64,000 nucleotides of DNA from a bacterium (GCA_023266935.1 JAHFOF010000002.1:68623-132622); one strand, 5' to 3'; counted from the first letter of the stretch, positions 812-62,693 are shown. Translations and numbers: made by a program. Notes: generated from the sequence alone by a model not told the origin.

Positions 812-1180
812 CTATTTTTCTTTTAGATCGAGGCACACAGAATTGATGCAGTATCTTTGTCCAGTCTTCGTGGGTCCATCATTGAATACGTGGCCCAGGT
901 GAGCCCCACAATTCGCACATTCAACTTCTGTTCGATGTGTGCCCATAGAATTATCTTCCTTTAGAATGATGTTTTTGGTGTTCGCTGGATTATCAAACGA
1001 TGGCCAACCAGTACCTGAATCAAACTTTGCATCAGAATCAAACAATTCTGCTCCACAAACTTTGCAGACATATATGCCTTCATCTTTTGTATGCACAAAT
1101 TCTCCAGTAAAAGGTGCCTCAGTCCCTTTTTCTCGAATCACGTGATATTCTTCTGGTGTTAGTTCGTTGTCTTTTTTCAT
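812..1180 (-). CDS. msrB: peptide methionine (R)-S-oxide reductase MsrB
   Basis: CxxC...CxxC zinc-site pairs, GWPSF motif, catalytic Cys in RYCINS. Confidence 0.85.
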
Positions 1181-1762: not shown

Positions 1763-2511
1763 TAAGACTCTGGTTGGAGAGTAATGGATTTGATAACCAC
1801 TGGTTCAACCGGCCTGTCGTTCTGATCCGTTGATACAGCATTAATAGCCATCACCACATCCATACCGGAAACCACTTTTCCAAACACCGTGTGTTTAGTG
1901 TCTAAGAAATTATTTGGAGCAGCATTGAAGAAAAATTGGCTACCGTTTGTGTCTGGTCCAGCATTCGCCATCGCAAGTGTGCCTTGATCATTTTTGTTGT
2001 TCGGACCCAACTCATCTTTAAAGGTATACCCCGGACCACCTGTTCCCCATCGAGCCATTTGTGAATCATCTTTTGAAAGAGGATCTCCACCCTGATTCAT
2101 AAATCCTTTAATCACTCTGTGGAACTTGGTCCCATCATAAAAACCTTCGTTAGCAAGTTTAAGAAAGTTTTCAACAGTATTCGGAGTATCAGGATTAAAG
2201 ACGACAGTAATATCTCCTTTGGTGGTATGAAATATGGCGCTCATGATTTTTATGGTTTTAGTGGTAGTTTGCCCCGAATTGGTCGAGGAAGTGGGTTGGT
2301 TATTAATTGGACCAGAGACTACATTGTTCGATGGTGATGAAATGTTGGGTGCTGGCTGGTTAGAAACTGAGTCGTTTGTGGCGGGAGAAACAAGAAGAGG
2401 TTTGTCTGTATTATAAACATTTGCCGTACCCGTGTCCCCCCTCCCGTAGAACCAATACAAACCACCGAGCACCACCACAACTCCAACAAGCATTAACAAT
2501 ACTCTTTGCAT
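1762..2511 (-). CDS. membrane-anchored cyclophilin-type peptidyl-prolyl isomerase
   Basis: N-terminal TM, Ser/Asn/Thr-rich linker, then cyclophilin core ([33 protein letters not shown]). Confidence 0.85.
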
Positions 2512-6557: not shown

Positions 6558-7181
6558 TTACCAGCGTTTGCGGGTAGTGATAGCTGGGGTAACAACTTTG
6601 CCCTCCTCGGCCAGTTTCTGTCGATACTGGGCTCGTTTGTGACGAGCAATCTTCACATAGAGCTTCATACCCAGAGGCAGTGGGGTATCCCAGTTGCAAA
6701 CAACGAATTTGCGCGTTGGATGTTGGGTCTTGTTCCCACAATACCAGTATCGACTCTTCAGTACCCGCCCGTGGACAACCATCATGAATTCTCCACATTG
6801 CGGACACTTCGGCCGATAACGCACTCGGATTCGAGCAACTCTCGCTTGATTCAGCAAGTTATCCAAAAAGTTCTTCGTCCGATGAATCGGGTGACTCGAG
6901 TAGAGAATCTTGTCATCCCCTACGATGAGCACCCAACCAGCGTCTTCTTCCCTCGCTTCGCCTTCGTCTCGGAGCCAGGTGGTCCAGACATAAACATCCA
7001 GACCGTTGTCCGAATAGACATAGCCGGCTTCCTTGCCCGACCTCTGGCGTGGAGGTTTGAGACCAAACTTCAGGATATCCCTTCCCACTTCTGCAGAAGA
7101 GACTGGCCGAAAACCAAATCCAGTGAGGCGAGATTCAAATATCTCGAACTCGATGGGGTTCGGCAAGATTTTTTTTGGCAC
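6558..7181 (-). CDS. hypothetical zinc-ribbon protein in a GC-rich segment
   Basis: CPQC...YWYCGNK...VCNW Cys cluster. Visibly GC-richer than its neighbours. No family recognised. Confidence 0.4.
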   Translation of the reverse strand: MPKKILPNPIEFEIFESRLTGFGFRPVSSAEVGRDILKFGLKPPRQRSGKEAGYVYSDNGLDVYVWTTWLRDEGEAREEDAGWVLIVGDDKILYSSHPIHRTKNFLDNLLNQARVARIRVRYRPKCPQCGEFMMVVHGRVLKSRYWYCGNKTQHPTRKFVVCNWDTPLPLGMKLYVKIARHKRAQYRQKLAEEGKVVTPAITTRKRW

Positions 7182-7272
7182 TTAAACCTCCGACGAAAAA
7201 ATGAGGAGCAAGATGTGCGTTCCTAAACCATTTATAACCTTTTAAATAAAAAACCACAAGACTAGCTTGTGG

Positions 7273-7494
7273 TTATAACAAATCAATATACGGACGAACT
7301 TTGATGTAGCACTGGAACCACCATGCGACACCACAGAGAACAGTAACGATGCGAAAGTGATTAGCAAACTCCCGTCCGCCGACGGAGAAAAACAGAAATT
7401 CGAACGCTGTGATGATGATGGCCATCCCACCGAACCCGATGAACACAAGATACGTCTTCGGGCGCTGGATGGAGAGAGATCTAAAGAACCCCAT
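7273..7494 (-). CDS. possible small two-TM membrane protein
   Basis: Internal Met MGFFRSL... in a 116-aa frame, starting just after the upstream gene's stop; hydrophobic. Confidence 0.25.
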   Translation of the reverse strand: MGFFRSLSIQRPKTYLVFIGFGGMAIIITAFEFLFFSVGGREFANHFRIVTVLCGVAWWFQCYIKVRPYIDLL

Positions 7495-7511
7495 GTTGTT
7501 TCCTCCTGAAG

Positions 7512-8045
7512 TCACACGGTGATGGTCTGCTTCCCTCGCCTCTGCCTGATTGTTCTCAAACGACCAAACAGAGAAATCGAAGGAATAACAACAAATGTGA
7601 GGACAGCACCAGCAATCAACCAAACCAAGATGAAAGCGATGACCGCCGGACCAAGAATGAAAGCCAGACCGTGCGTGAACCAGAACGAGAAGTGTCCTCC
7701 ATTGAAATCATAGAAGATATCCTCGAAAAGATCCTGTTCGACCGCTTCTTGGTAATTCCAGTTGCGTTTGATGCCGAAAAGATGTCCATTCGAACTATGC
7801 AGTTGCTGGTTTGCCCATCGAATTCGATGCTTCTGACCACCGGGGAGGTAGCATGGAGCGATCTCCCTAAAGCATTCGAAAGCCAAGGTCCATCGCCCAC
7901 GACTGAGTCGGCCACTCCGCAAAGCATAGCCAACGCTCGTCAGAAAGTACCAACCCATAAAACAAATGATTAGGTACCCGATGGTTGAGAGGATGACGAG
8001 CGAGGTGAAAGCCCAGCTGGGCAGATTGAAAATCTGTTCATGCAT
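7512..8045 (-). CDS. hypothetical membrane protein in the GC-rich segment
   Basis: 177 aa with several TM helices; no recognisable family. Confidence 0.4.
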   Translation of the reverse strand: MHEQIFNLPSWAFTSLVILSTIGYLIICFMGWYFLTSVGYALRSGRLSRGRWTLAFECFREIAPCYLPGGQKHRIRWANQQLHSSNGHLFGIKRNWNYQEAVEQDLFEDIFYDFNGGHFSFWFTHGLAFILGPAVIAFILVWLIAGAVLTFVVIPSISLFGRLRTIRQRRGKQTITV

Positions 8046-8126
8046 CGTGACCTCATGCGTTGTGAGAGAGCGAAAGTCTTAAACCATAAAAGCATCTGAA
8101 GTAAATTTTGTCAAATTTTCCGACTT

Positions 8127-8214
8127 TGGCGGAAGCGGAGAGATTCGAACTCTCGGTGGGTTTCCCCACGCCACGTTTCCAACGTGGTGCACTAGACCAC
8201 TATGCGACGCTTCC
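8127..8214 (-). tRNA. tRNA-Ser (GGA)
   Basis: Reverse complement GGAAGCG...CCACG-TTGGAAA-CGTGG...long variable arm...TTCGAAT...CGCTTCCGCCA. Anticodon GGA; CCA encoded. Confidence 0.85.
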
Positions 8215-12743: not shown

Positions 12744-13331
12744 TTATTTGCGGGTTACATAAACTAATTGGATTTTGGTACCGCCCGATTCTGGATTGAT
12801 AATGATGTTCAGTTCTTCTCGATCCTTAATTGCTTGATATCTGATTAATGATGCAGATTTGGATTGACTCACAATCGTAAATCCGTTGGTTGATAAATAT
12901 TTACTGTATGCAGAATAAAGTTCTTCTGTTTGTTTTGAAGACATGTACTGCACAGAATACAAGGTTGCTCCTCTGTCTGGATAAGCGAGAACTTCTGATT
13001 TAGAAATATTTTTCGTTTCCACAGGAATGTCTGTTGGGAATCCAGCTGGAAGTTGTTTGACTCCATCGGTGATTTGGACCTTTTCAGTAGTGAAAGATTT
13101 GTTCGGACGATTTGTGTAGTAGAAATATCCAGCCAACAACCCCAAGATGATCGCCAAAACAATAATGGAAATTAAATACGAATGAGGAGTAGGAACATCA
13201 GATGCCTTCTGAGGAGGTGGTGTTGAAATTGGAGCTTGAGGAGGTGGAGTATAAACAGGGGTGGAAGCCACCGCATTTTGCGGGGTCCCGCCAGAGGCGG
13301 TGATTGGGTTTTGGTTTAAATTTGGAGGCAT
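12744..13331 (-). CDS. hypothetical membrane protein (Pro-rich N-terminus, one TM)
   Basis: 195 aa. The N-terminal codons overlap copy B of the 36-nt motif, so the true start is uncertain. Confidence 0.4.
   Translation of the reverse strand: MPPNLNQNPITASGGTPQNAVASTPVYTPPPQAPISTPPPQKASDVPTPHSYLISIIVLAIILGLLAGYFYYTNRPNKSFTTEKVQITDGVKQLPAGFPTDIPVETKNISKSEVLAYPDRGATLYSVQYMSSKQTEELYSAYSKYLSTNGFTIVSQSKSASLIRYQAIKDREELNIIINPESGGTKIQLVYVTRK
13268..13303 (-). repeat. 36-nt double-hairpin motif, copy B
   Basis: Reverse complement tcaccgcctctggcgggaccccgcaaaatgcggtgg is near-identical to copy A. It lies at the 5' end of gene 12744..13331. Confidence 0.7.
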
Positions 13332-18336: not shown

Positions 18337-18358
18337 AAAAATAATAAAATGAATCCAA

Positions 18359-18394
18359 TCACCGCCTCTGGCGGGACCCCACAAAATGCGGTGG
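18359..18394 (+). repeat. 36-nt double-hairpin motif, copy A (5' leader of rnj)
   Basis: tcaccgcctctggcgggaccccacaaaatgcggtgg. Inverted orientation relative to copy B, about 5 kb away. Confidence 0.7.
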
Positions 18395-18492
18395 CTCCTG
18401 CTCCTACACGCACACATGCTCCGCGTTCTCCACTCATGTCTCGTTCTCTAAAACAAAGAGGGATGAGAAGGGACAATGATCGCCCGATTCCG

Positions 18493-21763: not shown

Positions 21764-22355
21764 CTACTTCCCCTGCTTTCCTCTCTATTAAATCTGCTCT
21801 GCGTAAATTCTTTATTTGTTTGTTTGAGATAATCTTTATATGGGGAGATTTGTCCAACATTTCTACTAATTTAAACAAATCTTTTTCTGAGTTTCTCCAA
21901 TCTATTTTGATTTTGGACAAATCGAAGGGTTTAGAATAACTCCTTAAGGTTTTTTCTCCATTGGATAAAAAATATTCGTGAAAATAAGATAGGGCCAGCT
22001 CACGGATGGTTTTATAAATCGGCTCTCTGTATCTTAGAACTGCATGGTTGGTTTTGGATATGGCTCCCCAGTATCCCTGCCTACCGGCAGGCAGGCATCT
22101 TTCTCTAAACAAAGTTACTACATGGTCCACATCTTTATCTTCTGTGGTTTTTAAATCAAGTAAAAGTGGTTTGTATCCTTGTTTTTCTAGAGCCAACGCT
22201 GCGATGAGTGCTCCTTCAAAACAATGCGCCCTATTAATTTTTAAAGCTTTAGTCGGAGACATATATGTCTCACCGTCTTTTTCAAAATTAAAAGGTATTT
22301 GATTTATAAAATCCTGAATCTTCTTTGGCGTATTAAGATTAGAAAGTTTAAACAC
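21708..22355 (-). CDS. hypothetical protein, possibly a Cys-His hydrolase fold; carries palindrome copy 1
   Basis: CFEGALIAALALE...DHVVTLF; contains the in-frame LPAGRQG insertion. Confidence 0.35.
   Translation of the reverse strand: MFKLSNLNTPKKIQDFINQIPFNFEKDGETYMSPTKALKINRAHCFEGALIAALALEKQGYKPLLLDLKTTEDKDVDHVVTLFRERCLPAGRQGYWGAISKTNHAVLRYREPIYKTIRELALSYFHEYFLSNGEKTLRSYSKPFDLSKIKIDWRNSEKDLFKLVEMLDKSPHIKIISNKQIKNLRRADLIERKAGEVVNELPSKSRSFESRRKRG
22076..22095. repeat. 20-bp GC palindrome, copy 1 (one mismatch)
   Basis: cctgcctaccggcaggcagg inside CDS 21708..22355, encoding LPAGRQ. Confidence 0.8.
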
Positions 22356-36568: not shown

Positions 36569-37198
36569 CTAACTTGCGAGAACAACAGACGGGCCGTGGG
36601 CGCTCCACACGCTGCCGAGCCAGCTGCAGCTCCAATCCCACCGACCATCGCGCCAGCACAGGCAGAGGACATACCGGCGGCCATCCGGGCGCCGAAGGAC
36701 AGTTCCATCGAAGTAGATGGAGGTTGTGTTGCCGTTCGTCTTCTCCTTCCACTGCTCGGGGATGAGGTGCTTGTTCTCCCAGAGAGTCTGCAAGACCTTC
36801 GCATCCAGACGGATGTGGCCTGCGTTCTTCAGGCGTTGAAGCTTGTCCTCGCCTTTGACCCACGACTCACTTGACTTGAGCATGTGCTCGAAACGAATGG
36901 ACCCAAGATTGACCTCGAAGAGAGCGATTGAACGCTCATCTTGTTCCGCGATCGACCAACCCGAACCGATGAATTCGACTGGGTTGAATGGGGTGGCGCG
37001 GTCAACGGTGACTCTTTCGTAGCTGACCGGCTTGTCCGGTTTCCACGAATTCACGAACACCGACAGATCACGATGGAACTCATCGGCGTTCTCTACGTCC
37101 TTGTTCAACTTGTTCACAACACGCTGAACTGGAACGAGTCGTTCCTGTGGAACACCAACAAGTGCCCGAACGATTCCTGCTAGCTTGTCCTGTGCCAT
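36569..37198 (-). CDS. hypothetical protein encoded in a GC-rich, foreign-looking cassette
   Basis: 209 aa. The locus is markedly GC-richer than its flanks, with overlapping spurious ORFs in other frames. No family recognised. Confidence 0.4.
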   Translation of the reverse strand: MAQDKLAGIVRALVGVPQERLVPVQRVVNKLNKDVENADEFHRDLSVFVNSWKPDKPVSYERVTVDRATPFNPVEFIGSGWSIAEQDERSIALFEVNLGSIRFEHMLKSSESWVKGEDKLQRLKNAGHIRLDAKVLQTLWENKHLIPEQWKEKTNGNTTSIYFDGTVLRRPDGRRYVLCLCWRDGRWDWSCSWLGSVWSAHGPSVVLAS

Positions 37199-37340: not shown

Positions 37341-38243
37341 TTATAGCTCTTTTTCAGCCTCTATAAATTCATCCAAATCACCATTTAGGACTTTTTCTAT
37401 TTGAGAAGTTTCAACGTTGGTTCGGTGGTCTTTGACCATTTTGTATGGATGCAGAACGTACGAACGGATTTGGTTTCCCCATTCAATCTGCGTTGTTTTA
37501 GAAATATACATCCCCTTTTCTTTCGCCTTCCTCTCTTCGTCTCGAAGTTTATAAAGTTTGGCCGAAAGCATCATGAGAGCTTTCTCTTTATTCTGCGCTT
37601 GACTGCGTTCTGTCTCTACATGCACGGCGAGGTTCGTGGGGATGTGGACCACACGCACGGCTGTCTCTCGTTTGTTCACATTTTGTCCACCCGGACCAGA
37701 TGATTTAGAAGTCTCAACTCGAATTTCTTCTGGAGGAATCTTTAGTTCATCTGGTGTTTCAAATTCGGGTATCACTTCAACCATAGAGAAAGATGTGTGT
37801 CGCAAATCCTTGGCACTAAATGGAGAGATACGCACGAGTCGATGCACGCCGGATTCATTCTTCAATGTCCCGTATGGACCTTTTGCCTCCTGCCTGCCGG
37901 CAGGCAGGTCAATCTCAATCGTGATGTTTCTGTATCCACCATGGTCATTCGTATTTTTGTGCAGAGTTTTAAAACTCCAACCTTTCTTCTCTATATATTT
38001 CATATACATTTCTAAAAGTATCCTAGAGAAATCTTCAGCGTCATCTCCACCAGCTCCAGAAAATATAGTCATCACTGCACTGCCCTTGTCATACTTTCCT
38101 CCTCCTTCCTTTTCATCTTTTAAATTTTGAATTTCTCGAATAATCGCTTGGGCCTTATCTTTGTCCAACCAAAAATCCGCCGAGCTCATCTCCGCTTCTA
38201 GTTCCTGAATTTTCTTATCTATTTCATTATTTGAAATTGTCAT
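37341..38243 (-). CDS. prfB: peptide chain release factor 2 (short N-terminal domain, no frameshift site)
   Basis: SPF tripeptide motif, GGQ motif (SGPGGQNVNK), HRLVRISPF. 300 aa. Contains palindrome copy 2, encoding DLPAGRQEA. Confidence 0.8.
   Translation of the reverse strand: MTISNNEIDKKIQELEAEMSSADFWLDKDKAQAIIREIQNLKDEKEGGGKYDKGSAVMTIFSGAGGDDAEDFSRILLEMYMKYIEKKGWSFKTLHKNTNDHGGYRNITIEIDLPAGRQEAKGPYGTLKNESGVHRLVRISPFSAKDLRHTSFSMVEVIPEFETPDELKIPPEEIRVETSKSSGPGGQNVNKRETAVRVVHIPTNLAVHVETERSQAQNKEKALMMLSAKLYKLRDEERKAKEKGMYISKTTQIEWGNQIRSYVLHPYKMVKDHRTNVETSQIEKVLNGDLDEFIEAEKEL
37889..37908. repeat. 20-bp GC palindrome, copy 2 (perfect)
   Basis: cctgcctgccggcaggcagg inside prfB. Confidence 0.85.
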
Positions 38244-39629: not shown

Positions 39630-39690
39630 GCGGCTGTACCCGCCCGAACGTGCCGAAGCACCTTCGGTACGGGCGGGGCTCAACGGTAGA
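39630..39690 (+). pseudogene. partial duplicate of the tRNA-Asp 5' end (nt 1-9 and 10-22) interrupted by a 39-nt GC-rich hairpin
   Basis: GCGGCTGTA + CCCGCCCGAACGTGCCGAAGCACCTTCGGTACGGGCGGG + GCTCAACGGTAGA. The flanks are identical to the intact tRNA-Asp at 39926. Confidence 0.7.
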
Positions 39691-39695
39691 TCAAT

Positions 39696-39935
39696 ATGCA
39701 CATTGTATACGTTTTACAAGACGAAAAGGGTAAGTTTTACAAAGGACTTACAAATAACCTTGCAAGACGTTTCAGTGAACATAAAAGAGGAGAAACAATT
39801 ACAACTTCAAAAATGAGTGGGTTGAAAATTGTTTATACTGAAGAATATGACTCCTTCGAAAAAGCCCGAGCAAGAGAAGTGTACCTAAAAACTGCTGCGG
39901 GACGAAGGTTTCTGAAAAATAAATTGCGGCTGTAG
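39696..39935 (+). CDS. small GIY-YIG nuclease-domain protein (UPF0213/YhbQ-like)
   Basis: IVYVLQDEKGKFYKGLTNNLARRFSEHKRG GIY-YIG motif; 79 aa. The stop codon lies inside the first 10 nt of tRNA-Asp. Confidence 0.75.
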   Translation: MHIVYVLQDEKGKFYKGLTNNLARRFSEHKRGETITTSKMSGLKIVYTEEYDSFEKARAREVYLKTAAGRRFLKNKLRL

Positions 39936-40000
39936 CTCAACGGTAGAGCACTCCCCTGTCACGGGAGAGGCCGTGGGGTCAGCACCCATCAGCCGCGCCA
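39926..40000 (+). tRNA. tRNA-Asp (GUC)
   Basis: GCGGCTGTAGCTCAACGGTAGAGC...CTCCC-CTGTCAC-GGGAG...CAGCCGCGCCA with encoded CCA; unusual T-loop GTCAGCA. Confidence 0.75.
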
Positions 40001-40004
40001 AACC

Positions 40005-40170
40005 AAAAAGTCCAGATTTATTCTGGTCTTTTTTATACCTTTGCCGAGCTGAAGAAATGTTTAAATGACATTTCGTTGGGTGCTGAGGGCGCAGGCCGAC
40101 GGGCCGAGCCGGGGTCGCGCAAATCCCGACCACGGGATTATGTGTGATCAGACCACCCATCATCCGCGCA
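40005..40170 (+). repeat. 166-nt direct repeat R1 (cassette-junction element ending in a tRNA-Asp 3'-like core)
   Basis: About 97% identical to 40846..41012. Internal hairpins GAAATGT..ACATTTC and AATCCCG..CGGGATT. 3' end CCACCCATCATCCGCGCA. Confidence 0.85.
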
Positions 40171-40244
40171 TCTGAAAAGACCCTTAGAAATACGGGTCTT
40201 TTTCTGTAGAGAAATGAGACGTTAGAAATGATACACTCAATTAT

Positions 40245-40814
40245 ATGGAAAAAGTACCAGGACAATATGAAACCGAAGGTTTTATACCATTTGAACAATC
40301 CCTTCAAATGGCTCGAAAACTCATGGAAGATCATGAAGACGAATTGATAAATATCCGCGCTGCACTTCCCGAAGAAGATCGAGAGGCAATTAGATTTAAT
40401 GGAAGTTCCATTGAACACCACTTGAATAAGTTTCCTAAAGAAACACTAAAAAGATTTTGGGGACATGGAATTTTCAGAGGCGACGCAGAAAAAAATCTTG
40501 CGGCGCTGATTAATGTTATCCAAAATAAAAGTATAAAAGGTTCTATTGCCACCCTTGTTGATAGTGGTTATTATGATGCCGCAAAGGATGGCGATTTTTT
40601 AGTTCTTTCACACGCAGACACCACGCTCGCTGTGTTGAATGAAAACGGCAAACCTATCTTTAATGAAATCGGTTTAGTTATTAACGCTGGAGCCTATGTG
40701 GTAAATGCGAAGCTTTATCCAATAATTGATGATTTGAAGGTTCTTTTTCCTGATGCAAATATTCTCATGGCAAATGAAGTTCCTGAGTATGTGAATAGTG
40801 AAACTGGAGTTTAG
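40245..40814 (+). CDS. hypothetical protein (cassette 1 cargo)
   Basis: 189 aa, soluble, no family recognised. Confidence 0.45.
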   Translation: MEKVPGQYETEGFIPFEQSLQMARKLMEDHEDELINIRAALPEEDREAIRFNGSSIEHHLNKFPKETLKRFWGHGIFRGDAEKNLAALINVIQNKSIKGSIATLVDSGYYDAAKDGDFLVLSHADTTLAVLNENGKPIFNEIGLVINAGAYVVNAKLYPIIDDLKVLFPDANILMANEVPEYVNSETGV

Positions 40815-40845
40815 TTCTCACTTCATACACTAGCCCGCGCTAGGT

Positions 40846-41012
40846 TAAAAAAGTCCAGATTTATTCTGGTTTTTTTATACCTTTGCCGAGCTGAAGAAAT
40901 GTCTAAACGACATTTCGTTGGGTGCTGAGGGCGCAGGCCGACGGGCCGAGCCGGGGTCGCGCAAATCCCGACCACGGGATTATGTGTGATCAGACCACCC
41001 ATCAGCCGCGCA
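40846..41012 (+). repeat. 166-nt direct repeat R2
   Basis: Second copy; 3' end CCACCCATCAGCCGCGCA is almost identical to the tRNA-Asp 3' end. It is preceded by the 21-nt junction cttcatacactagcccgcgct, which recurs at 41723..41743. Confidence 0.85.
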
Positions 41013-41033
41013 AAACTTGGTATAATTCAAAGA

Positions 41034-41735
41034 ATGATACCTCTGAAGTTTGTTTATCTCGTCGGTCTTGTTCCCATAGGAATTGCATGGCTCGTTCTTT
41101 ATTTTCAGCGCAGTGATTTAAGAAAGGAAATGCTCTGGATGAGTTCTCTGATGGCATTCGGAAGCTTTGTCACTTCGTATTACTTTTGGACAAAAGATTG
41201 GTGGAGGCCGTTAACGATAACTGGTACTAGAGTTGGTATTGAGGATATTCTGCTCGGGTTTGCTATTGGTGGAATTGAGGCGGTTATATATGAGGTGGTA
41301 TTTAAAAAGAAATATTATAAAAGAAAACTTCATCCTCATAATTTTTTGTTGCCGCTTCTGCTCTTAATCCAGCTTATTACTTTTTTATTCTGGGGTGTAG
41401 GGCTAACATCTTTTTGGTCCTGTGTATTGTCCTTAATTTTGGTTTCTACGGGTGTATTTATTATAAGAAGAGATTTGTTAATGAACGGAATCTTATCTGG
41501 AATACTAACTATGTTAATTGCCATGTTAGATTACTACTTCATCATGCTCATTTCTCCCCAATGGATAGATCACACTTATCTTTCATCTTTAAGTGGCGTT
41601 AGAATAACGGGAATACCAATAGAAGAACTAATATTCTGGTTTTTGGCTGGATTGCTGTTTGGCCCTTTATATGAATACTGGCAGGGTAAAAGATTGGTTG
41701 GCATTAAGAAATCCAGTTCCAACTTCATACACTAG
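41034..41735 (+). CDS. multi-TM membrane protein with two lycopene-cyclase-domain-like repeats (tentative); cassette 2 cargo
   Basis: Repeated ...GIEDIL... and ...GIPIEELIFWFLAG... blocks resembling the PxEE motif of CrtYcd-type domains. Start moved past the repeat. Confidence 0.35.
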   Translation: MIPLKFVYLVGLVPIGIAWLVLYFQRSDLRKEMLWMSSLMAFGSFVTSYYFWTKDWWRPLTITGTRVGIEDILLGFAIGGIEAVIYEVVFKKKYYKRKLHPHNFLLPLLLLIQLITFLFWGVGLTSFWSCVLSLILVSTGVFIIRRDLLMNGILSGILTMLIAMLDYYFIMLISPQWIDHTYLSSLSGVRITGIPIEELIFWFLAGLLFGPLYEYWQGKRLVGIKKSSSNFIH

Positions 41736-42158
41736 CCCGCGCTTCCATAATTTAAAACAGAAAAGCCCCACGCAGGTAAGCTATGAGGCTTCTCTGCTTG
41801 GGGCTCAAACCGATCGACCAACTGATGCAACTTCGAGCTTCCAGGTGTGTTTCTTGTCTGGAACGAACATATGACTCACGTGTGCACCTCCAGCAAGAGC
41901 AACCGTCCGAACAAGCCAGCCACCAGGAACCTTCAAGCGATGCGAGAAGGACCTGGAATCCTGGAAGTTTTGGACATCGTCCATCACTTGAATCCTTTCC
42001 CACATAGAGGCTCCTTTTGTCTGAAGTTGTAGTTGAGAACTGACTTTTTATATGATATCACACAATTATTATATAGTCAAGCGTATTGCTAAATCTTTAA
42101 CCTAATTCCAACCTCATACACCCTCGGCCATAGTCTATAGACGAGGCTGACCCGCGCA

Positions 42159-47511: not shown

Positions 47512-48096
47512 CTAGTTGTCTATTAATCTTTGGGAGGCCATGGATTCCAAGGTAAAACTCGTTCGGGTATTAGATTTGGTTCCAGCATCTCCACTAATCT
47601 TGATCAAAGCCTTCGGTTGTAGTGTGTCAGCTGGATAAGAATTCGCCCCGATAACATAAAATGTGAGGCTACTGATATTTATTTCTGGTGCAGTGACTGC
47701 CACATAAGTATTTCCTCCGTCCACTGATTTTTCCATAGATGAACCGTTTAATCTATATACAGTTTGCACTCCTTCACTCGACAGGAAACTAATGAAAGAA
47801 TCTCCAAGTGAACAATTTTGAGGAAGAGACAAAGAACCAGTAGAACCACAATGGTAGTTTCTACCAAAACGAATTTCTCTGGTCATCGTTTCCACAGCAA
47901 AGTTTAGATTATCCATCACAGTCTTCGCTGATTCGGCTTTTTTATTCGCATCAAAGATTCCCAGAAGCGCGCCCATACTAATCATCATCACCACCATAAA
48001 AACCGTGAGGGAAGTCATCATTTCAATAAGAGTAAATCCCTGCCTGCCGGCAGGCAGGCTTTTTTCATTCTTTGGTTTTAAAAATTTTATTTTCAT
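47512..48096 (-). CDS. type IV minor pilin/pseudopilin; carries palindrome copy 3 in the leader
   Basis: QGFTLIEMMTSLTVFMVV; LPAGRQ immediately before the cleavage Gly. Confidence 0.7.
   Translation of the reverse strand: MKIKFLKPKNEKSLPAGRQGFTLIEMMTSLTVFMVVMMISMGALLGIFDANKKAESAKTVMDNLNFAVETMTREIRFGRNYHCGSTGSLSLPQNCSLGDSFISFLSSEGVQTVYRLNGSSMEKSVDGGNTYVAVTAPEINISSLTFYVIGANSYPADTLQPKALIKISGDAGTKSNTRTSFTLESMASQRLIDN
48039..48058. repeat. 20-bp GC palindrome, copy 3 (perfect)
   Basis: cctgcctgccggcaggcagg in the prepilin leader-coding region. Confidence 0.85.
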
Positions 48097-59001: not shown

Positions 59002-59814
59002 ATGGCAAAACCCTATTATAAAAAAGATAATTTTAAACTATACCAAGCTGATTGTTTGGATATTCTAAAAGAAATACCAGAAAATTCTGTTGATATGGTC
59101 TTTGCTGATCCTCCATATTTACTTTCAAACGGAGGTTTTACCGTACACGCTGGAAAAATGGTAAGTGTAAATAAGGGAGAATGGGACAAAAGCAACGGTT
59201 TAAAAAAGGATTTTGAGTTTCATCTCGAGTGGATTCGAGCAGTTAGACGTGTTCTTAAACCCTCCGGCACACTTTGGATTAGTGGAACATACCATTCAAT
59301 CTATCAATGTGGTTTTGCACTTCAAGTTGCTGGATTCCACGTGCTCAATGATATTGCGTGGTTTAAACCAAATGCATCACCGAATTTAAGTTGTCGTTTT
59401 TTTACCGCAAGCCACGAAACCCTTGTTTGGGCGAGAAAAGACAAAAAAGCAAAACATATTTTCAATTACGATTTAATGAAAAATGGTACTTGGCCAGAAG
59501 ACGCATTGAAAAAGCCGGGGCTCCAAATGCGCTCGGTTTGGTCAATGGGAACACCAAAACCAATTGAAAAGAAATTTGGAAAGCATCCAACCCAAAAACC
59601 AGAAGATTTGCTAAAACGGGTTGTTCTTGCTAGTACTAATAAAGGGGATATCGTGCTGGATCCATTTACAGGTAGTTCTACCACTGGGATTGCTGCACAT
59701 TTATTCGGTAGAAAATTTATTGGTATTGATTTAGATAAGAAATTTTTAGATGTTTCAATAAAAAGATTTGAAGAATTAGATAAAAATATTAGAAATAAAA
59801 GAGCAAAAATATGA
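59002..59814 (+). CDS. DNA methyltransferase, beta class (N6-adenine or N4-cytosine)
   Basis: FADPPY (motif IV) precedes DPFTGSSTTG (motif I). Confidence 0.85.
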   Translation: MAKPYYKKDNFKLYQADCLDILKEIPENSVDMVFADPPYLLSNGGFTVHAGKMVSVNKGEWDKSNGLKKDFEFHLEWIRAVRRVLKPSGTLWISGTYHSIYQCGFALQVAGFHVLNDIAWFKPNASPNLSCRFFTASHETLVWARKDKKAKHIFNYDLMKNGTWPEDALKKPGLQMRSVWSMGTPKPIEKKFGKHPTQKPEDLLKRVVLASTNKGDIVLDPFTGSSTTGIAAHLFGRKFIGIDLDKKFLDVSIKRFEELDKNIRNKRAKI

Positions 59815-60332
59815 TAGAAAAAGGTAAAGGAGGAGGGAACACCATAACGGGTTTGAATTTTGAAAAGGAAACGGATATCCTGTCACTTCTTAAAAATCAA
59901 AAAGGATACAAAATAAAAGAAAATATTATTTTTTATGACGGAAAAGAAGTCGCAAGGAGCTATAAAAAGAATGGTTTGTATAAATTCTTAGAATCAAAAA
60001 AAGTAGATTATAAAAAAATAATTTCAAAAAAATTACTTCCAGATGAAGCTTTATATGTAATCGTGAACAACACTCTATTTGTTATTGAAGTTAAATTTCA
60101 AAAAGTCGCAGGCTCTGTTGATGAAAAGCTTCAAACATGCGATTTTAAAAGAAAACAATATGCCAAACTTATGGCCCCGCTCAATATTGAAGTTGAATAC
60201 ATTTATATATTAAGCGAATGGTTTAATCATCCAACATATAAAGATGTACGGGATTATATAATTTCAGTTGGATGTCAGTATTATTTTAAATATCTACCGC
60301 TTCAGAAGTTGGGATTACCCATTCCAAAATAA
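59811..60332 (+). CDS. putative type II restriction endonuclease (PD-(D/E)xK)
   Basis: PDEALYVIVNNTLFVIEVKFQK; translationally coupled 3' of the MTase; very AT-rich. Confidence 0.5.
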   Translation: MIEKGKGGGNTITGLNFEKETDILSLLKNQKGYKIKENIIFYDGKEVARSYKKNGLYKFLESKKVDYKKIISKKLLPDEALYVIVNNTLFVIEVKFQKVAGSVDEKLQTCDFKRKQYAKLMAPLNIEVEYIYILSEWFNHPTYKDVRDYIISVGCQYYFKYLPLQKLGLPIPK

Positions 60333-60336
60333 TAAA

Positions 60337-60540
60337 ATGTTAAGGCAAGGAGTTAAATCATCGGATCTGCTATCAGTAGGTTACCATTCTGGTACTTTGG
60401 AAATAGAGTTTAAAAATAATTCAATATATCAATATTTAGATGTTCCAGAATATATATATCATGAATTAGTAAACTCAGATTCTAAGGGGAAATATTTCAA
60501 TCAGAATATCAGAAATATTTTTAGATGTATGAAAATATGA
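60337..60540 (+). CDS. stand-alone KTSC-domain protein
   Basis: GTLEIEFKNNSIYQYLDVPEYIYHELVNSDSKGKYFNQNIR matches the KTSC consensus. Confidence 0.6.
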   Translation: MLRQGVKSSDLLSVGYHSGTLEIEFKNNSIYQYLDVPEYIYHELVNSDSKGKYFNQNIRNIFRCMKI

Positions 60541-62693
60541 AGCAAGTAAATATTAATCTAGAAAATTGTTATGGAATAACAAAATTAAAAAAGGATTTTG
60601 ATTTTTTAAATGGAAACGTTTATGCCATTTATTCTCCAAATGGAACGATGAAGACTTCATTTGCTAATACTTTTAAAGATATAAGTAAAGTTTTATTAAC
60701 TACGGATAGGGTGTTTCGTAGACCAAATGTGCGTGATATAAAAAAAGAGAACAATGTTGATCTTTCTCCAGAAGAAATTTTCGTAATCGAACCATATAAC
60801 GAATACTTCGTTTCGTCTAGAATTTCCACTCTTCTTGTAAATAAGAGATTAAAAAACGATTATGAAAATATTTATATAAAGATTGATGAAGCAAAAGAAA
60901 AATTATTTAAGAAAATATCTAAAATGTCTGGTCTGAAATCTTCGTTAGAGGAAGAAATTTCTATTTCTTTTACCGGGGAAGAGGGTAATTTTTTCGATGT
61001 TTTAGAAACTATTAAACCCTATGTGGCAGATTTATCTGAACCAGTATATTCTCAAGTATCTTATAAGGAAATTTTTAACGAAAAAGTTTTAAATTTTTTG
61101 AACATGGAAAATGTCAAAGAAAATATTTCTAGTTATATAACAAAATACAATGAATTAATTGAATCATCTACCTATTTCAAAAAAGGTGTTTTTAATCATA
61201 ATAACGCATCTGCAGTTTCAAAAAATTTAAAGGATAATGGTTTTTTTGAAGCGGAACATTTCATTTCGTTACATGGTCAAAGCGAAGATCAAAGAGTTAA
61301 TAACAAAGAAGAATTCGATAGGATTATAGAACAAGAGAAAAATATTATTTTAAACAATACAGAATTATTAGCTTCCTTTGAAAACATAGATAAAATTCTT
61401 ACTAAAAATGAAGAGTTACGTAGTTTCAGAGAATTTTTAACAAATAATACGGGTATTATTCTAGAACTACTTGAAATTGAAGAACTTAAGAAAAAAATAT
61501 GGTTATCATATTTTAAAACTCACAAAGATTTATATATAAATCTGATTACAGAATATGAAGAAGCTAAAGAAAATTTAAAAAATATAATTGCTCAAGCAAA
61601 ATTGGAAATAACTCGATGGAGAAAGGTGGTTGATATTTTTAACAAAAGATTTTTTGTACCATTTAAGTTAGAAATAGCAAACCAAGAGGACGTTATCTTA
61701 AAGCAAGTGGCTCCATTTATATCATTTGTTTTTAAGGATTTTATTTCTGAGACTCCAATTGAACAAGCCGAGTTAGTTACGATATTAAGTACTGGAGAAA
61801 AGCATGCTTTATATATACTTAACGTAATTTTTGAATTTGAAGGGAGAATTGAAACGGGACAAGAAACACTTTTTATTGTGGATGATATCGCTGATTCTTT
61901 TGATTATAAAAACAAGTATGCAATCATAGAATATTTAAAAGAAATTTCTAATATTAATATATTTAATCAGATTATTCTAACTCACAATTTTGATTTCTTT
62001 AGAACTATACAGAGTAGGCTTAATCTATCTCGAGATACAAAAGTTTTAATGGTTGAAAAAACTCTCAGCGGCGTGAATCTAGTCAAAGCAGAATATTTCA
62101 ACCCTTTTAATTACTGGATGGATCATTTGAACGAGGATAAAAAATTTATAGCATCTATAGCTTTTTCAAGAAATATTATTAATTATATAGTTGGAGAGGA
62201 TGATCAGGACTATCTTAAACTGACGTCTCTTCTACATATAAAATCAGATACAGATTCAATAACCAAAATAGATGTAGAAAGTATATATAAAAAATTTTTT
62301 CCAAAACAATCAAACTTAAATCTATTGAAACCAAACGATAAAATTATAGATTTGATATTTTCATTGGCTGAAGTTTGTTTATTAGATCCAGAAGGAATAA
62401 ATCTTGAAAATAAAATAATTCTTTCTATTGCAATAAGACTCAAGGCCGAAAAGTTCATGCTAAGCAAACTAACAGATAAGAATTATGCAAATAAAAATCA
62501 AACTAGAGAATTTTTTGATAGATATAATGTAGAGTTTGGGAATACAGAACTAGAGAAAGTTAAAATTCTAGAGAGAGTTAATTTGATAACTCCTGAAAAT
62601 ATACACCTGAATTCTTTTATGTACGAGCCAATTCTAGACATATCAGATGTTCATCTCAAGGAATTGTATAATGATGTTAAGGTGATGCAATGA
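60525..62693 (+). CDS. PrrC/RloC-like (AAA_13-type) ABC ATPase with coiled-coil insert and C-terminal effector-like domain; degenerate Walker A
   Basis: N-terminal VNINLEN...NVYAIYSPNGTMKTSF (PrrC-like IYGxNGSGKTT with GK changed to MK). Coiled-coil middle, ABC signature LSTGEK, Walker B LFIVDD, H-loop ILTHN, about 250-aa C-terminal domain with R-x3-E. Confidence 0.5.
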   Translation: MYENMKQVNINLENCYGITKLKKDFDFLNGNVYAIYSPNGTMKTSFANTFKDISKVLLTTDRVFRRPNVRDIKKENNVDLSPEEIFVIEPYNEYFVSSRISTLLVNKRLKNDYENIYIKIDEAKEKLFKKISKMSGLKSSLEEEISISFTGEEGNFFDVLETIKPYVADLSEPVYSQVSYKEIFNEKVLNFLNMENVKENISSYITKYNELIESSTYFKKGVFNHNNASAVSKNLKDNGFFEAEHFISLHGQSEDQRVNNKEEFDRIIEQEKNIILNNTELLASFENIDKILTKNEELRSFREFLTNNTGIILELLEIEELKKKIWLSYFKTHKDLYINLITEYEEAKENLKNIIAQAKLEITRWRKVVDIFNKRFFVPFKLEIANQEDVILKQVAPFISFVFKDFISETPIEQAELVTILSTGEKHALYILNVIFEFEGRIETGQETLFIVDDIADSFDYKNKYAIIEYLKEISNINIFNQIILTHNFDFFRTIQSRLNLSRDTKVLMVEKTLSGVNLVKAEYFNPFNYWMDHLNEDKKFIASIAFSRNIINYIVGEDDQDYLKLTSLLHIKSDTDSITKIDVESIYKKFFPKQSNLNLLKPNDKIIDLIFSLAEVCLLDPEGINLENKIILSIAIRLKAEKFMLSKLTDKNYANKNQTREFFDRYNVEFGNTELEKVKILERVNLITPENIHLNSFMYEPILDISDVHLKELYNDVKVMQ

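Follow-up and report, generated by a model that had tools for sequence, protein, structure and literature searches.

The 64,000-nt stretch of bacterial DNA analyzed here (GCA_023266935.1 JAHFOF010000002.1:68623-132622, hereafter the window) contains two copies, R1 and R2, of a 166-nt repeat downstream of its tRNA-Asp gene. We show that both belong to a widespread family of tRNA-linked structured non-coding elements, here called R, in bacteria of the Candidate Phyla Radiation (CPR, or Patescibacteria), which are uncultured and have tiny genomes with unusual tRNA and rRNA gene structures. Each element joins a fixed scaffold to sense and antisense arms that match the 3' end of a specific tRNA. 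The scaffold has been re-fitted with arms for different tRNAs, and the arms include an unpaired anti-T-loop segment that covaries with four T-loop variants. The family is apparently undescribed, and a design of this kind, with an anti-T-loop segment that can pair only in trans, apparently has no counterpart in Rfam 15 or the searchable literature. A family so widespread beside CPR tRNA genes likely matters for tRNA biology or genome plasticity, and would represent either a new tRNA-directed RNA (mimic, sensor or guide) or a new way to build or target gene-acquisition hot spots without a resident integrase.

A sequence-only reading of the window had reported a repeat 3' of tRNA-Asp that recurs at about 97% identity, and this was borne out. 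R1 (40005-40170) and R2 (40848-41012) are 97-98% identical, in a 142-nt block (40029-40170 versus 40871-41012, 98% identity) and a 29-nt block (40005-40033 versus 40848-40876, 97%) offset by a single 1-nt indel; the differences are T/C, T/C and T/G plus the indel. Both copies also end, as had been claimed, in the core of the tRNA-Asp 3' end. The 16-mer CACCCATCAGCCGCGC (tRNA positions 59-74) is found at 39983 in the tRNA itself, at 40154 with one mismatch and at 40996, three matches where 0.14 are expected by chance and a number reached in 0 of 100 shuffles. The 21-nt junction described after each of the two genes of the array is exact at 40821 and 41723 (0 expected) and grows to 29 nt at 93% identity; we refer to these junction sites as J. 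The internal palindromes are likewise real and correspond to hairpins H1 and H3 of the predicted fold, which for the window repeat has z = -3.1 on the plus strand versus -1.0 on the minus strand. Behind a second hairpin that follows R1, the sequence CUGUAGAGAAAUG bears a weak likeness to the start of an R 5' part. All features are listed in Table 1.

To place the repeat in a wider context we searched genomes and metagenome contigs. A scan of GTDB genomes with the 16-mer returned mainly chance matches in GC-rich genomes, together with the loci L006, L007 and L023 and intron-bearing tRNA-Asp loci. In L023 (Parcubacteria), a terminator and then a 155-nt element come after tRNA-Asp; the element has short motifs in common with R, and its hairpins differ from those of R in sequence with the pairing kept. 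The L006 contig (Saccharibacteria) has the same layout, and L007 is a further Saccharibacteria locus. A pattern combining these common motifs (TGGGTRCTGA N60-90 CCCATCRSCCGCGCA) identified 18 loci in metagenome contigs; the element lies on the tRNA strand in all of them and, in most, directly after tRNA-Asp and a hairpin. Several contain two tandem copies, which are identical in L126 and divergent in L127, L129 and L136/137. The copies fall into two scaffold types, with the inner-domain motifs CUGACGGGCGGAG ... CGAGCCGGGGUCG ... GUGACCAG in type A, to which both window copies belong, and CUGAAACCGAUUGAG ... CCAAUCGGUGUACUG and then a UGUAA-loop hairpin in type B. A covariance model made from ten type-A sequences found 27 copies at E<=1e-6 in 20 sources, only two of them in the window, and the family totals about 25 CPR/Patescibacteria loci. 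The element typically sits on the tRNA strand, behind a terminator-like hairpin, 30-45 nt past a tRNA gene, a prior element or a J site. Rfam 15, searched with the window and six related loci at gathering and permissive thresholds, returned only tRNAs and noise, and we found no description of a comparable element in the literature. One outcome that the sequence-only reading had set against its own proposal, a conserved non-coding RNA found elsewhere, is thus half realized: the element is conserved beside CPR tRNA genes, often once per locus.

The most striking feature of R is the match between its arms and the tRNA next to it. The 3' end of the element, E', is a copy of the tRNA from the T-loop or the 3' strand of the T-stem through the discriminator and one or two more bases (15-20 nt). 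At the 5' end, g1 (for example GUGCGGCUGA) reproduces the acceptor 5' strand plus 2-3 bases and pairs with E' as a closing stem, P1, of 9-12 bp, and g2 (UGGGUGCUGAC) is the exact complement of the T-loop and the T-stem 3' strand (GUCAGCACCCA). Hairpin H1 usually separates g1 from g2 and is missing in L261 and L262. The 5' arm as a whole is antisense to the last ~20 nt of the tRNA, with the scaffold between this arm and E'.

Several lines of evidence indicate that the arms follow the tRNA. The tRNA-Asp acceptor of L130 and L133 reads GCGGGCG/CGCCCGC, and both g1 and E' show the matching change. In L133 the covariance model detects three elements beside three tRNAs, and each set of arms fits its own tRNA: R(Met) has g1 GUGCCGAUGA, g2 AUGGAAUUGAAC and E' CCAUUCAUCGGCACA; R(Thr), of the same scaffold type, has g2 GGGGUUUGAAC and E' CCCGGUCUUGGCUCCA; and R(Asp) is of type B. 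In L261 and L262, where tRNA-Asp has the canonical T-loop UUCAAGU, g2 reads UGGGACUUGAA. At the level of sequence, the match is thereby shown for four independent tRNA/T-loop types, namely Asp with two T-loops, Met and Thr. Without interruption, g2 is complementary to the upstream tRNA over 10-15 nt and to the 3' end of its own element over 6-9 nt, the match to the tRNA being the longer one in every locus where both were compared. In R(Met), R(Thr) and every type-B copy, the element itself offers no pairing partner for the anti-T-loop bases. In L006, g1 fits the tRNA at 8/8 positions, better than it fits its own E'. Elements that stand behind a J site rather than a tRNA (window R2, L125 and L135) carry arms for tRNA-Asp, not for J. 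A long, nearly perfect palindrome runs from the tRNA end through its trailer and the terminator hairpin to g1; in L136 it measures 16 + 5 + 16 nt.

The predicted fold is branched, with two junctions, GNRA-like loops and tandem G-A pairs. In a model-guided alignment, 90.3% of cells pair, compared with 67% in shuffles and 37-42% when partners were slid by 1-3 columns; 47 of 54 pairs show changes on both sides, and none of 500 shuffles reached any of these measures. RNAalifold recovers the type-B fold independently, with 20 of 43 pairs compensated. G-U pairs outnumber A-C (66 versus 33 in the model alignment), the 5' strand of P1 has U opposite G at three positions, and the plus strand folds better than the minus strand, with z down to -6.3 for R(Met), indicating that the folded strand is the tRNA-sense strand. 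A first RNAalifold pairing for type A, joining UGGGUGCUGA to the 3' end, was rejected because the acceptor variants of L130 and L133 covary with g1 and not with g2. We also rejected a hammerhead-like reading of CUGAnGA plus H1 (no GAA past the hairpin), an anticodon role for the H1 loop (there is no conservation among the loops), and transfer-messenger RNA (tmRNA), signal recognition particle RNA, 6S RNA and RNase P RNA (size, architecture, no Rfam matches).

What R does is the least certain part of our account. We would give about an even chance to the combined proposal that R functions as an RNA with tRNA-like processed ends and that the tRNA-end copies serve as crossover points for modules. 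R would act as a plus-strand RNA, transcribed together with the tRNA or by read-through from it, the terminators being leaky. Pairing of g1 and g2 with E' would place a copy of the acceptor stem on a T stem, yielding a mimic of the tRNA minihelix in which the scaffold replaces the T-loop, and this mimicry would let RNase P and RNase Z define the ends of R. The single-stranded anti-T-loop segment would be free to pair with the cognate tRNA or its gene, and the repeated copies of the tRNA end (E) would double as points of homology or crossover for gene addition. In the tRNA-like domain of tmRNA, the bacterial Y-RNA YrlA, MALAT1 mascRNA and viral tRNA-like structures, too, the ends pair as an acceptor-like stem on a T-stem-like helix, and by analogy those of R plausibly recruit tRNA-processing enzymes. 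These RNAs, however, mimic a generic tRNA and keep the T-loop, whereas R copies a specific neighboring tRNA, has a 60-90-nt scaffold in place of the T-loop, lacks D and anticodon arms and leaves an anti-T-loop segment unpaired. R keeps equivalents of the acceptor and T stems only, and in searches with tRNA, tmRNA and YrlA models ARAGORN and Rfam found the true tRNAs but not R. The split tRNA genes of Nanoarchaeum offer another likeness, a stand-alone tRNA 3' part beside a complementary segment, but here the tRNA is intact, R lacks positions 8-53 and there is no bulge-helix-bulge or archaeal splicing endonuclease context.

A number of observations weigh against a processed, tRNA-like RNA. R has no recognizable promoter of its own and a terminator-like hairpin lies 5' of it, so that its expression is an assumption. 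The covariation counts lean to structure, the alignment having been fitted to the model, and in the window copies P1 is weakened to 5 bp, 3 mismatches and 2 bp. Only three of nine GTDB CPR loci with this tRNA-Asp end have an R or R-like element, the tandem copies of L126 are identical, and arms for several tRNAs occur in one genome; such patchiness, tandem copies and multi-tRNA arms are no less expected of an element that moves or recombines than of a housekeeping RNA. Moreover, processing leaves the tRNA-matched arms and the unpaired anti-T-loop segment unexplained, because a tRNA-like processing end needs neither. These two features, together with the patchiness, the identical tandem copies and one scaffold serving three tRNAs, keep tandem integration and an RNA-guided element in contention. 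R may also be a programmable RNA, a conserved scaffold with exchangeable arms, one antisense and one sense to the last ~20 nt of a chosen tRNA, which would pair with the 3' half of that tRNA or with both strands of its gene; together with a partner protein acting in trans, it would direct insertion or recombination of DNA modules at tRNA genes or monitor and control the cognate tRNA. We regard this as a minority possibility. If true, the reduced CPR genomes would encode a new class of guide RNA directed at tRNAs and, where R directs insertion, an RNA-guided counterpart of the tRNA-specific integrases.

A related idea, which we judge unlikely, is an RNA-guided or templated element that targets tRNAs, with g1 and g2 pairing to the sense strand of the tRNA-gene 3' end or to the tRNA 3' half and E' to the other strand; a protein in trans (a recombinase, reverse transcriptase or nuclease) would insert, copy or cleave, and re-targeting of the scaffold would give new arms. 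The Asp, Met and Thr arms on one scaffold, the complement to T-loop bases that lack a cis partner and covary with four T-loop types, and the g1 of L006 all speak for it. The retroviral or long-terminal-repeat primer-binding site has the same target, the 3' acceptor/T-arm part of a tRNA, and the same order of g1 then g2; in L136, 12 nt of the tRNA end are matched against genomic sequence. IS110 bridge RNA and IS200/605 omega RNA similarly combine a fixed scaffold with target-matching arms of ~20 nt that vary between copies. One reverse-transcriptase open reading frame (ORF), in L125, ends 35 nt before a J site, terminator and R. However, no effector gene is consistently near R, and the reverse transcriptase is seen at this one locus only; the proteins of the IS110 and IS605 systems (DEDD recombinase, TnpB, IscB) are absent among the listed ORFs, with Pfam run on subsets. 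The complementarity ends at C74 and leaves the mature CCA uncovered, which makes priming by the tRNA unlikely. The guide segments of R, unlike those of guide RNAs, mostly pair with one another in cis, and copies are not dispersed, the two in the 64 kb both being at tRNA-Asp. A diversity-generating retroelement or retron was rejected, since the R1/R2 differences are not at adenines and the only reverse transcriptase, that of L125, lies upstream of R. This L125 ORF (3-1250) is an RVT_1 protein with a GNLTSQ motif whose best PADLOC/NCBIfam matches are generic and group II reverse transcriptases; the adjoining R is of type B.

To ask how the array arose we compared homologous tRNA-Asp loci, as the sequence-only reading had advised, and found the content downstream of R to be hypervariable among relatives. 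A recurring frame, gatC-gatA-membrane protein ... tRNA-Met ... tRNA-Asp - R - [variable genes] - tRNA-Thr - prfB - ftsE, is present in L139, L133, L126, L130, L261 and the window, where the tRNA-Asp segment is inverted. The genes 3' of R are two NUDIX genes in L023; isochorismatase, an HNH protein and one further gene in L139; an EEP nuclease in L126; and a hydrolase in L125. The same tRNA-Asp-R site is thus variably occupied among the window, L023, L126, L139 and L261 and is empty in L133. In L261 and L262 the order is tRNA-Asp - terminator - R - TGGTATAAT - gene 2 - J, followed in L262 by a terminator and a second R-like element and in L261 by a NUDIX gene. The window shares the unit tRNA-Asp - R - gene 2 - J, which therefore represents shared synteny, and carries a single further module, gene 1 - J1 - terminator - R. 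By the 16-mer, the tRNA-Asp 3' end is present in three direct copies in the window, where the decayed J1-J3 come in addition; L261 likewise has three copies, and they also occur in L262.

Judging from the sequence, a crossover between R copies or between tRNA-3'-end copies is the likely origin of the extra module. DNA carrying gene 1 - J - terminator - R may have recombined with the resident R in a Campbell-type event, or there may have been unequal exchange between units; either route would leave gene 1 - J1 between two direct 166-nt copies of R, and homologous and site-specific recombination would yield an identical product. Modules ending in tRNA-Asp 3'-end copies plausibly record recombination that has recurred at this end of the tRNA gene. 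This is a fair reading because the modules are bounded by tRNA ends, the stretch is hypervariable and no integrase is present. The sequence-only reading is thus supported in part, having rightly taken the tRNA 3' end as the organizing site; its analogy to an integron and attC fails, as set out below.

Could the array then be explained by tandem site-specific integration alone, with small integrase-less modules or remnants accreting at the tRNA 3' end through a recombinase in trans, in the manner of cis-mobilizable elements (CIMEs) or integron cassettes? In this view the crossover site would, like attC, be a single strand folded through pairing of the antisense arm with E or through the palindrome of tRNA end, terminator and g1. 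Each island has 3-6 direct copies of the tRNA-Asp 3' end, with each module ending in one, and island content differs among relatives. Gene 2 has J only inside this island, the L126 tandem units are identical and R is patchy, and the near-perfect palindrome formed by the tRNA end, trailer and g1 surrounds the terminator loop. The direct tRNA 3'-end repeats beside an intact tRNA, the variable occupancy of the site and the hypervariable content are all as in genomic islands or CIMEs at tRNA 3' ends, where repeats of the last 15-20 nt of the tRNA bound the modules, and the older repeats (J here) are the more decayed, as in CIME-type accretion. Set against a miniature inverted-repeat transposable element, for which terminal inverted repeats, a short target-site duplication and many dispersed copies are expected, R gives a mixed picture: g1 and E' form a terminal inverted repeat of 10-12 bp and E could be read as a 15-20-bp duplication, but every copy is located at a tRNA 3' end or a J site, and the 64-kb window has only two.

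Several points speak against tandem integration, which we consider possible but improbable. The earlier statement that no integrase is visible in the window holds: none is in the ORF map, and Pfam searches of unassigned ORFs gave none above cutoff. No recombinase was found either among the ORFs listed ~3.5 kb around R in about 25 loci (Pfam run on a subset), nor was a tyrosine or serine recombinase, the integrase expected at one end of an integrative element, found in the window or the inspected loci. The sole recombinase-type Pfam signal, 33 kb from the array, is a weak match to the recombinase zinc-ribbon PF13408 (6558-7181, minus strand; E 5e-4, below cutoff). The 5 nt between E or J and the repeat differ between R1 and R2, and therefore the duplicated block starts elsewhere than at the presumed crossover core. 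R behind J keeps the arms of the genome's tRNA-Asp rather than those of J, and the fold, given its two junctions, GNRA-like loops and tandem G-A pairs, has the look of an RNA rather than of a recombination hairpin. Nor were copies found in viruses: three scans of viral contigs gave no genuine R, the covariance model found no copy in 80 viral loci (chance matches to a loose scaffold pattern), and blastn of R against phage records gave no match. In contrast to genomic islands and integrase-less CIME-type elements at tRNA 3' ends, no integrase lies anywhere nearby, modules are as small as 166 nt, and R is a conserved, covarying fold with an antisense copy of the tRNA end whose scaffold occurs at Asp, Met and Thr tRNAs.

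The integron reading is not supported. attC sites are imperfect palindromes of 57-141 nt with RYYYAAC/GTTRRRY cores, conserved in structure and not in sequence, and integron cassettes are mostly promoter-less and driven by a common Pc. As in integrons, a structured repeat is interspersed with single genes, and recombination could act on a single strand in its folded form, but in the units as first described the repeat precedes the gene, whereas attC follows the cassette gene. No intI or attI is present in the 64-kb ORF map or among the ORFs listed around R in the ~25 loci (Pfam run on a subset), RYYYAAC/GTTRRRY cores were not seen at R or J ends on reading (no dedicated motif search was made), the genes have promoter-like boxes of their own, and the repeat is branched and conserved in sequence across genomes, unlike a hairpin specific to one cassette.

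A last alternative is that R is a duplicated cis-regulatory leader, such as a riboswitch or attenuator, or non-functional debris of tRNA-gene duplications. A hairpin with a T-run and then gene 1 do lie 3' of R1, and the ends of R resemble tRNA fragments. However, extended -10 boxes of genes 1 and 2 are positioned 3' of the repeat, and terminator-like hairpins lie between the units (both are consensus matches only); with these boxes between R and the start codons, and the ATG 7 nt later, the repeat is not the 5' untranslated region of either gene, contrary to the duplicated leader that had been offered as an alternative to the array. The downstream genes are inconsistent, being unrelated (NUDIX, isochorismatase, EEP nuclease, hydrolase) or absent (L133), and R has no Rfam match. 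Debris, for its part, is at odds with strong covariation and invariant single-stranded motifs in distant lineages. Both possibilities are very remote and we regard them as essentially excluded.

Table 1. Features of the tRNA-Asp island, in order along the window.
Feature	Position	Strand	Basis or remark
Pseudo-copy of tRNA-Asp nt 1-25, split by 39-nt GC-rich hairpin	39630-39693	+	Sequence reading, repeat search
79-aa GIY-YIG endonuclease ORF	39696-39935	+	Directly 3' of pseudo-copy; stop overlaps start of intact tRNA-Asp
tRNA-Asp(GUC)	39926-40000	+	Intron-less; ARAGORN; Rfam tRNA 59.3 bits
E, final 16-20 nt of tRNA-Asp, copied downstream	39979-39998	+	16-mer search
T1, terminator-like hairpin opening R1	40005-40033 (stem 40012-40026)	+	Between A-run and T-run; hairpin scan
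R1 body	40043-40170	+	cmsearch 89.5 bits
R1 g1, degenerate acceptor 5' strand GCCGAGCUGA	40043-40052	+	
R1 hairpin H1	40054-40074	+	
R1 g2 UGGGUGCUGA, complement of tRNA-Asp T-loop and T-stem 3' strand	40077-40086	+	
R1 type-A scaffold	40087-40153	+	
R1 E'	40154-40170	+	15/16 nt same as tRNA end
Second hairpin with T-run 3' of R1 (GACCC..GGGTC + T5)	40175-40203	+	By eye; absent from hairpin-scan list
Gene 1 module	40229-40814	+	Extended -10 TGATACACT 40229-40237, 7 nt, ATG 40245; 189-aa orphan protein
J1, pseudo tRNA-Asp 3' end AGTTCTCACTTCATACACTAGCCCGCGCT	40813-40841	+	Same place before R2 as tRNA 3' end before R1
R2	40848-41012	+	cmsearch 94.1 bits
R2 terminator hairpin	40855-40869	+	
R2 g1	40885-40894	+	
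R2 H1	40896-40916	+	
R2 g2	40919-40928	+	Followed by scaffold
R2 E'	40996-41012	+	16/16 nt same as tRNA end
Gene 2 module	41018-41735	+	TGGTATAAT 41018-41026, 7 nt, ATG 41034; 233-aa membrane protein
J2	41715-41743	+	93% identical to J1
Small convergent gene	41771-42080	-	ORF 42005-41805, 66 aa, GC-rich; called as gene in Logan contig
Hairpin and T-run of 66-aa gene	~41812-41771	-	By eye
Promoter-like TTGACT-17-TATCAT with upstream TG, for 66-aa gene	42080-42052	-	Promoter scan
J3, TTCCAACCTCATACAC / 26-nt hairpin insert (42122-42147) / TGACCCGCGCA	42106-42158	+	

The J sites appear from their sequence to be old, decayed copies of the tRNA-Asp end. This is best seen in L261, where the canonical tRNA end (GTTC AAGTCC CATC A CTCGCGCA) aligns with J (GTTC TCACAT CATC CACTAG CTCGCGCA); the TAG stop comes from a 5-6-nt insertion in J. 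J3 adjoins the stop codon of a conserved gene for a 230-aa membrane protein and marks the far edge of the island. A stretch of ~55 nt up to and including J is conserved in L125 (1040-1092), L135 (2540-2590), L007 (~1049-1110, minus strand) and L123 (~1887-1950, minus strand) and reads ..GGTATATA..CCNTTATGA..GCAGTTCNNAC..CGCGCA. In L125 and L135 it consists of an extended -10 box and then a 10-aa mini-ORF with the J peptide end (..SSHFVH* and ..GSYVVH*).

The two genes of the array are unrelated. The gene 1 protein has no Pfam, NCBIfam or PADLOC match, and its single homolog (50% identity) sits after tRNA-Thr beside a 16S gene in L260, without R or J. The gene 2 product has a lycopene-cyclase domain (PF18916, E 3.7e-11), and its best named homologs are from Candidatus Nomurabacteria and Paceibacterota. 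Among its more than 140 CPR homologs nearly all terminate in ...YEYWQGERLKxxx. The final 7 codons of gene 2 (SSSNFIH*) are encoded by J2, and only three homologs read through J in this way (SS[NH][FI][IV]H*), namely the window copy, P0011 (L262) and P0034 (L261). At the other loci checked there is no tRNA, R or J, one homolog lying between smpB and infC and one between trmD and an aminoacyl-tRNA synthetase gene; as a check on cassette mobility, the homologs lacking J lie in ribosomal or trmD neighborhoods. From the sequence, the mRNAs of genes 1 and 2 are probably leaderless, since the start codons come 7 nt after the -10 boxes. The segment after gene 2 (41750-42010) had been described as lacking a convincing ORF and as a possible decayed recombinase; instead it holds a small intact gene on the minus strand, whose 66-aa product (41805-42005) has no Pfam family match; of its 170 homologs at E<=1e-3, most are 50-70 aa long and some are repeats in large proteins.

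The window as a whole is a low-GC CPR-type genome segment whose ORF map includes ftsE, prfB, gatCA and ligA in the neighborhood and a type IV pilus cluster. The T-loop of its tRNA-Asp (39979-39985) is the non-canonical GUCAGCA, in which G54 and G58 replace U54 and A58; this loop is kept in many CPR contigs, and the canonical UUCAAGU is found in other CPR lineages (L261, L262). In many relatives the tRNA-Asp anticodon loop is interrupted by a group-I-like intron of ~205-700 nt with the motif GAAGATATAGTCC (L006, L020, L038, L070, L096, L123, L126, L128, L130, L131 and L137-L139), in some cases with a LAGLIDADG ORF inside (L139); ARAGORN misses these interrupted genes. In the window, the region 39630-39935 looks like a homing-endonuclease insertion by which the tRNA 5' part was duplicated.

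Further features lie outside the island. Between ftsE and prfB, which are adjacent in L126, L133 and L138, the window has a 209-aa ORF (36569-37198, minus strand) of 52-61% GC in a ~38% GC genome; it has no Pfam, NCBIfam or PADLOC match and is probably a recent foreign gene. Another tRNA-linked island may lie at 6558-8214 (minus strand), where tRNA-Ser(GGA) precedes ~1.6 kb of GC-richer sequence that has small ORFs, among them the one with the weak PF13408 match, and no R element. Two divergent genes share an N-terminal coding segment (..NPITASGGTPQNAVA..), which appears in the DNA as a 54-nt inverted repeat with 89% complementarity (13257-13310 and 18352-18405). The 20-nt perfect palindrome CCTGCC(T)GCCGGCAGGCAGG occurs in three unrelated ORFs (prfB, a pilin-like gene and one other; 22076-22098, 37886-37916 and 48036-48058), where it is in frame and encodes LPAGRQ, reminiscent of palindromic elements within coding sequence. 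Finally, a DNA methyltransferase-like gene, a small PD-(D/E)XK-like ORF and a 722-aa SMC/AAA-like ORF (59002-62693) form a possible restriction-modification or defence cluster.

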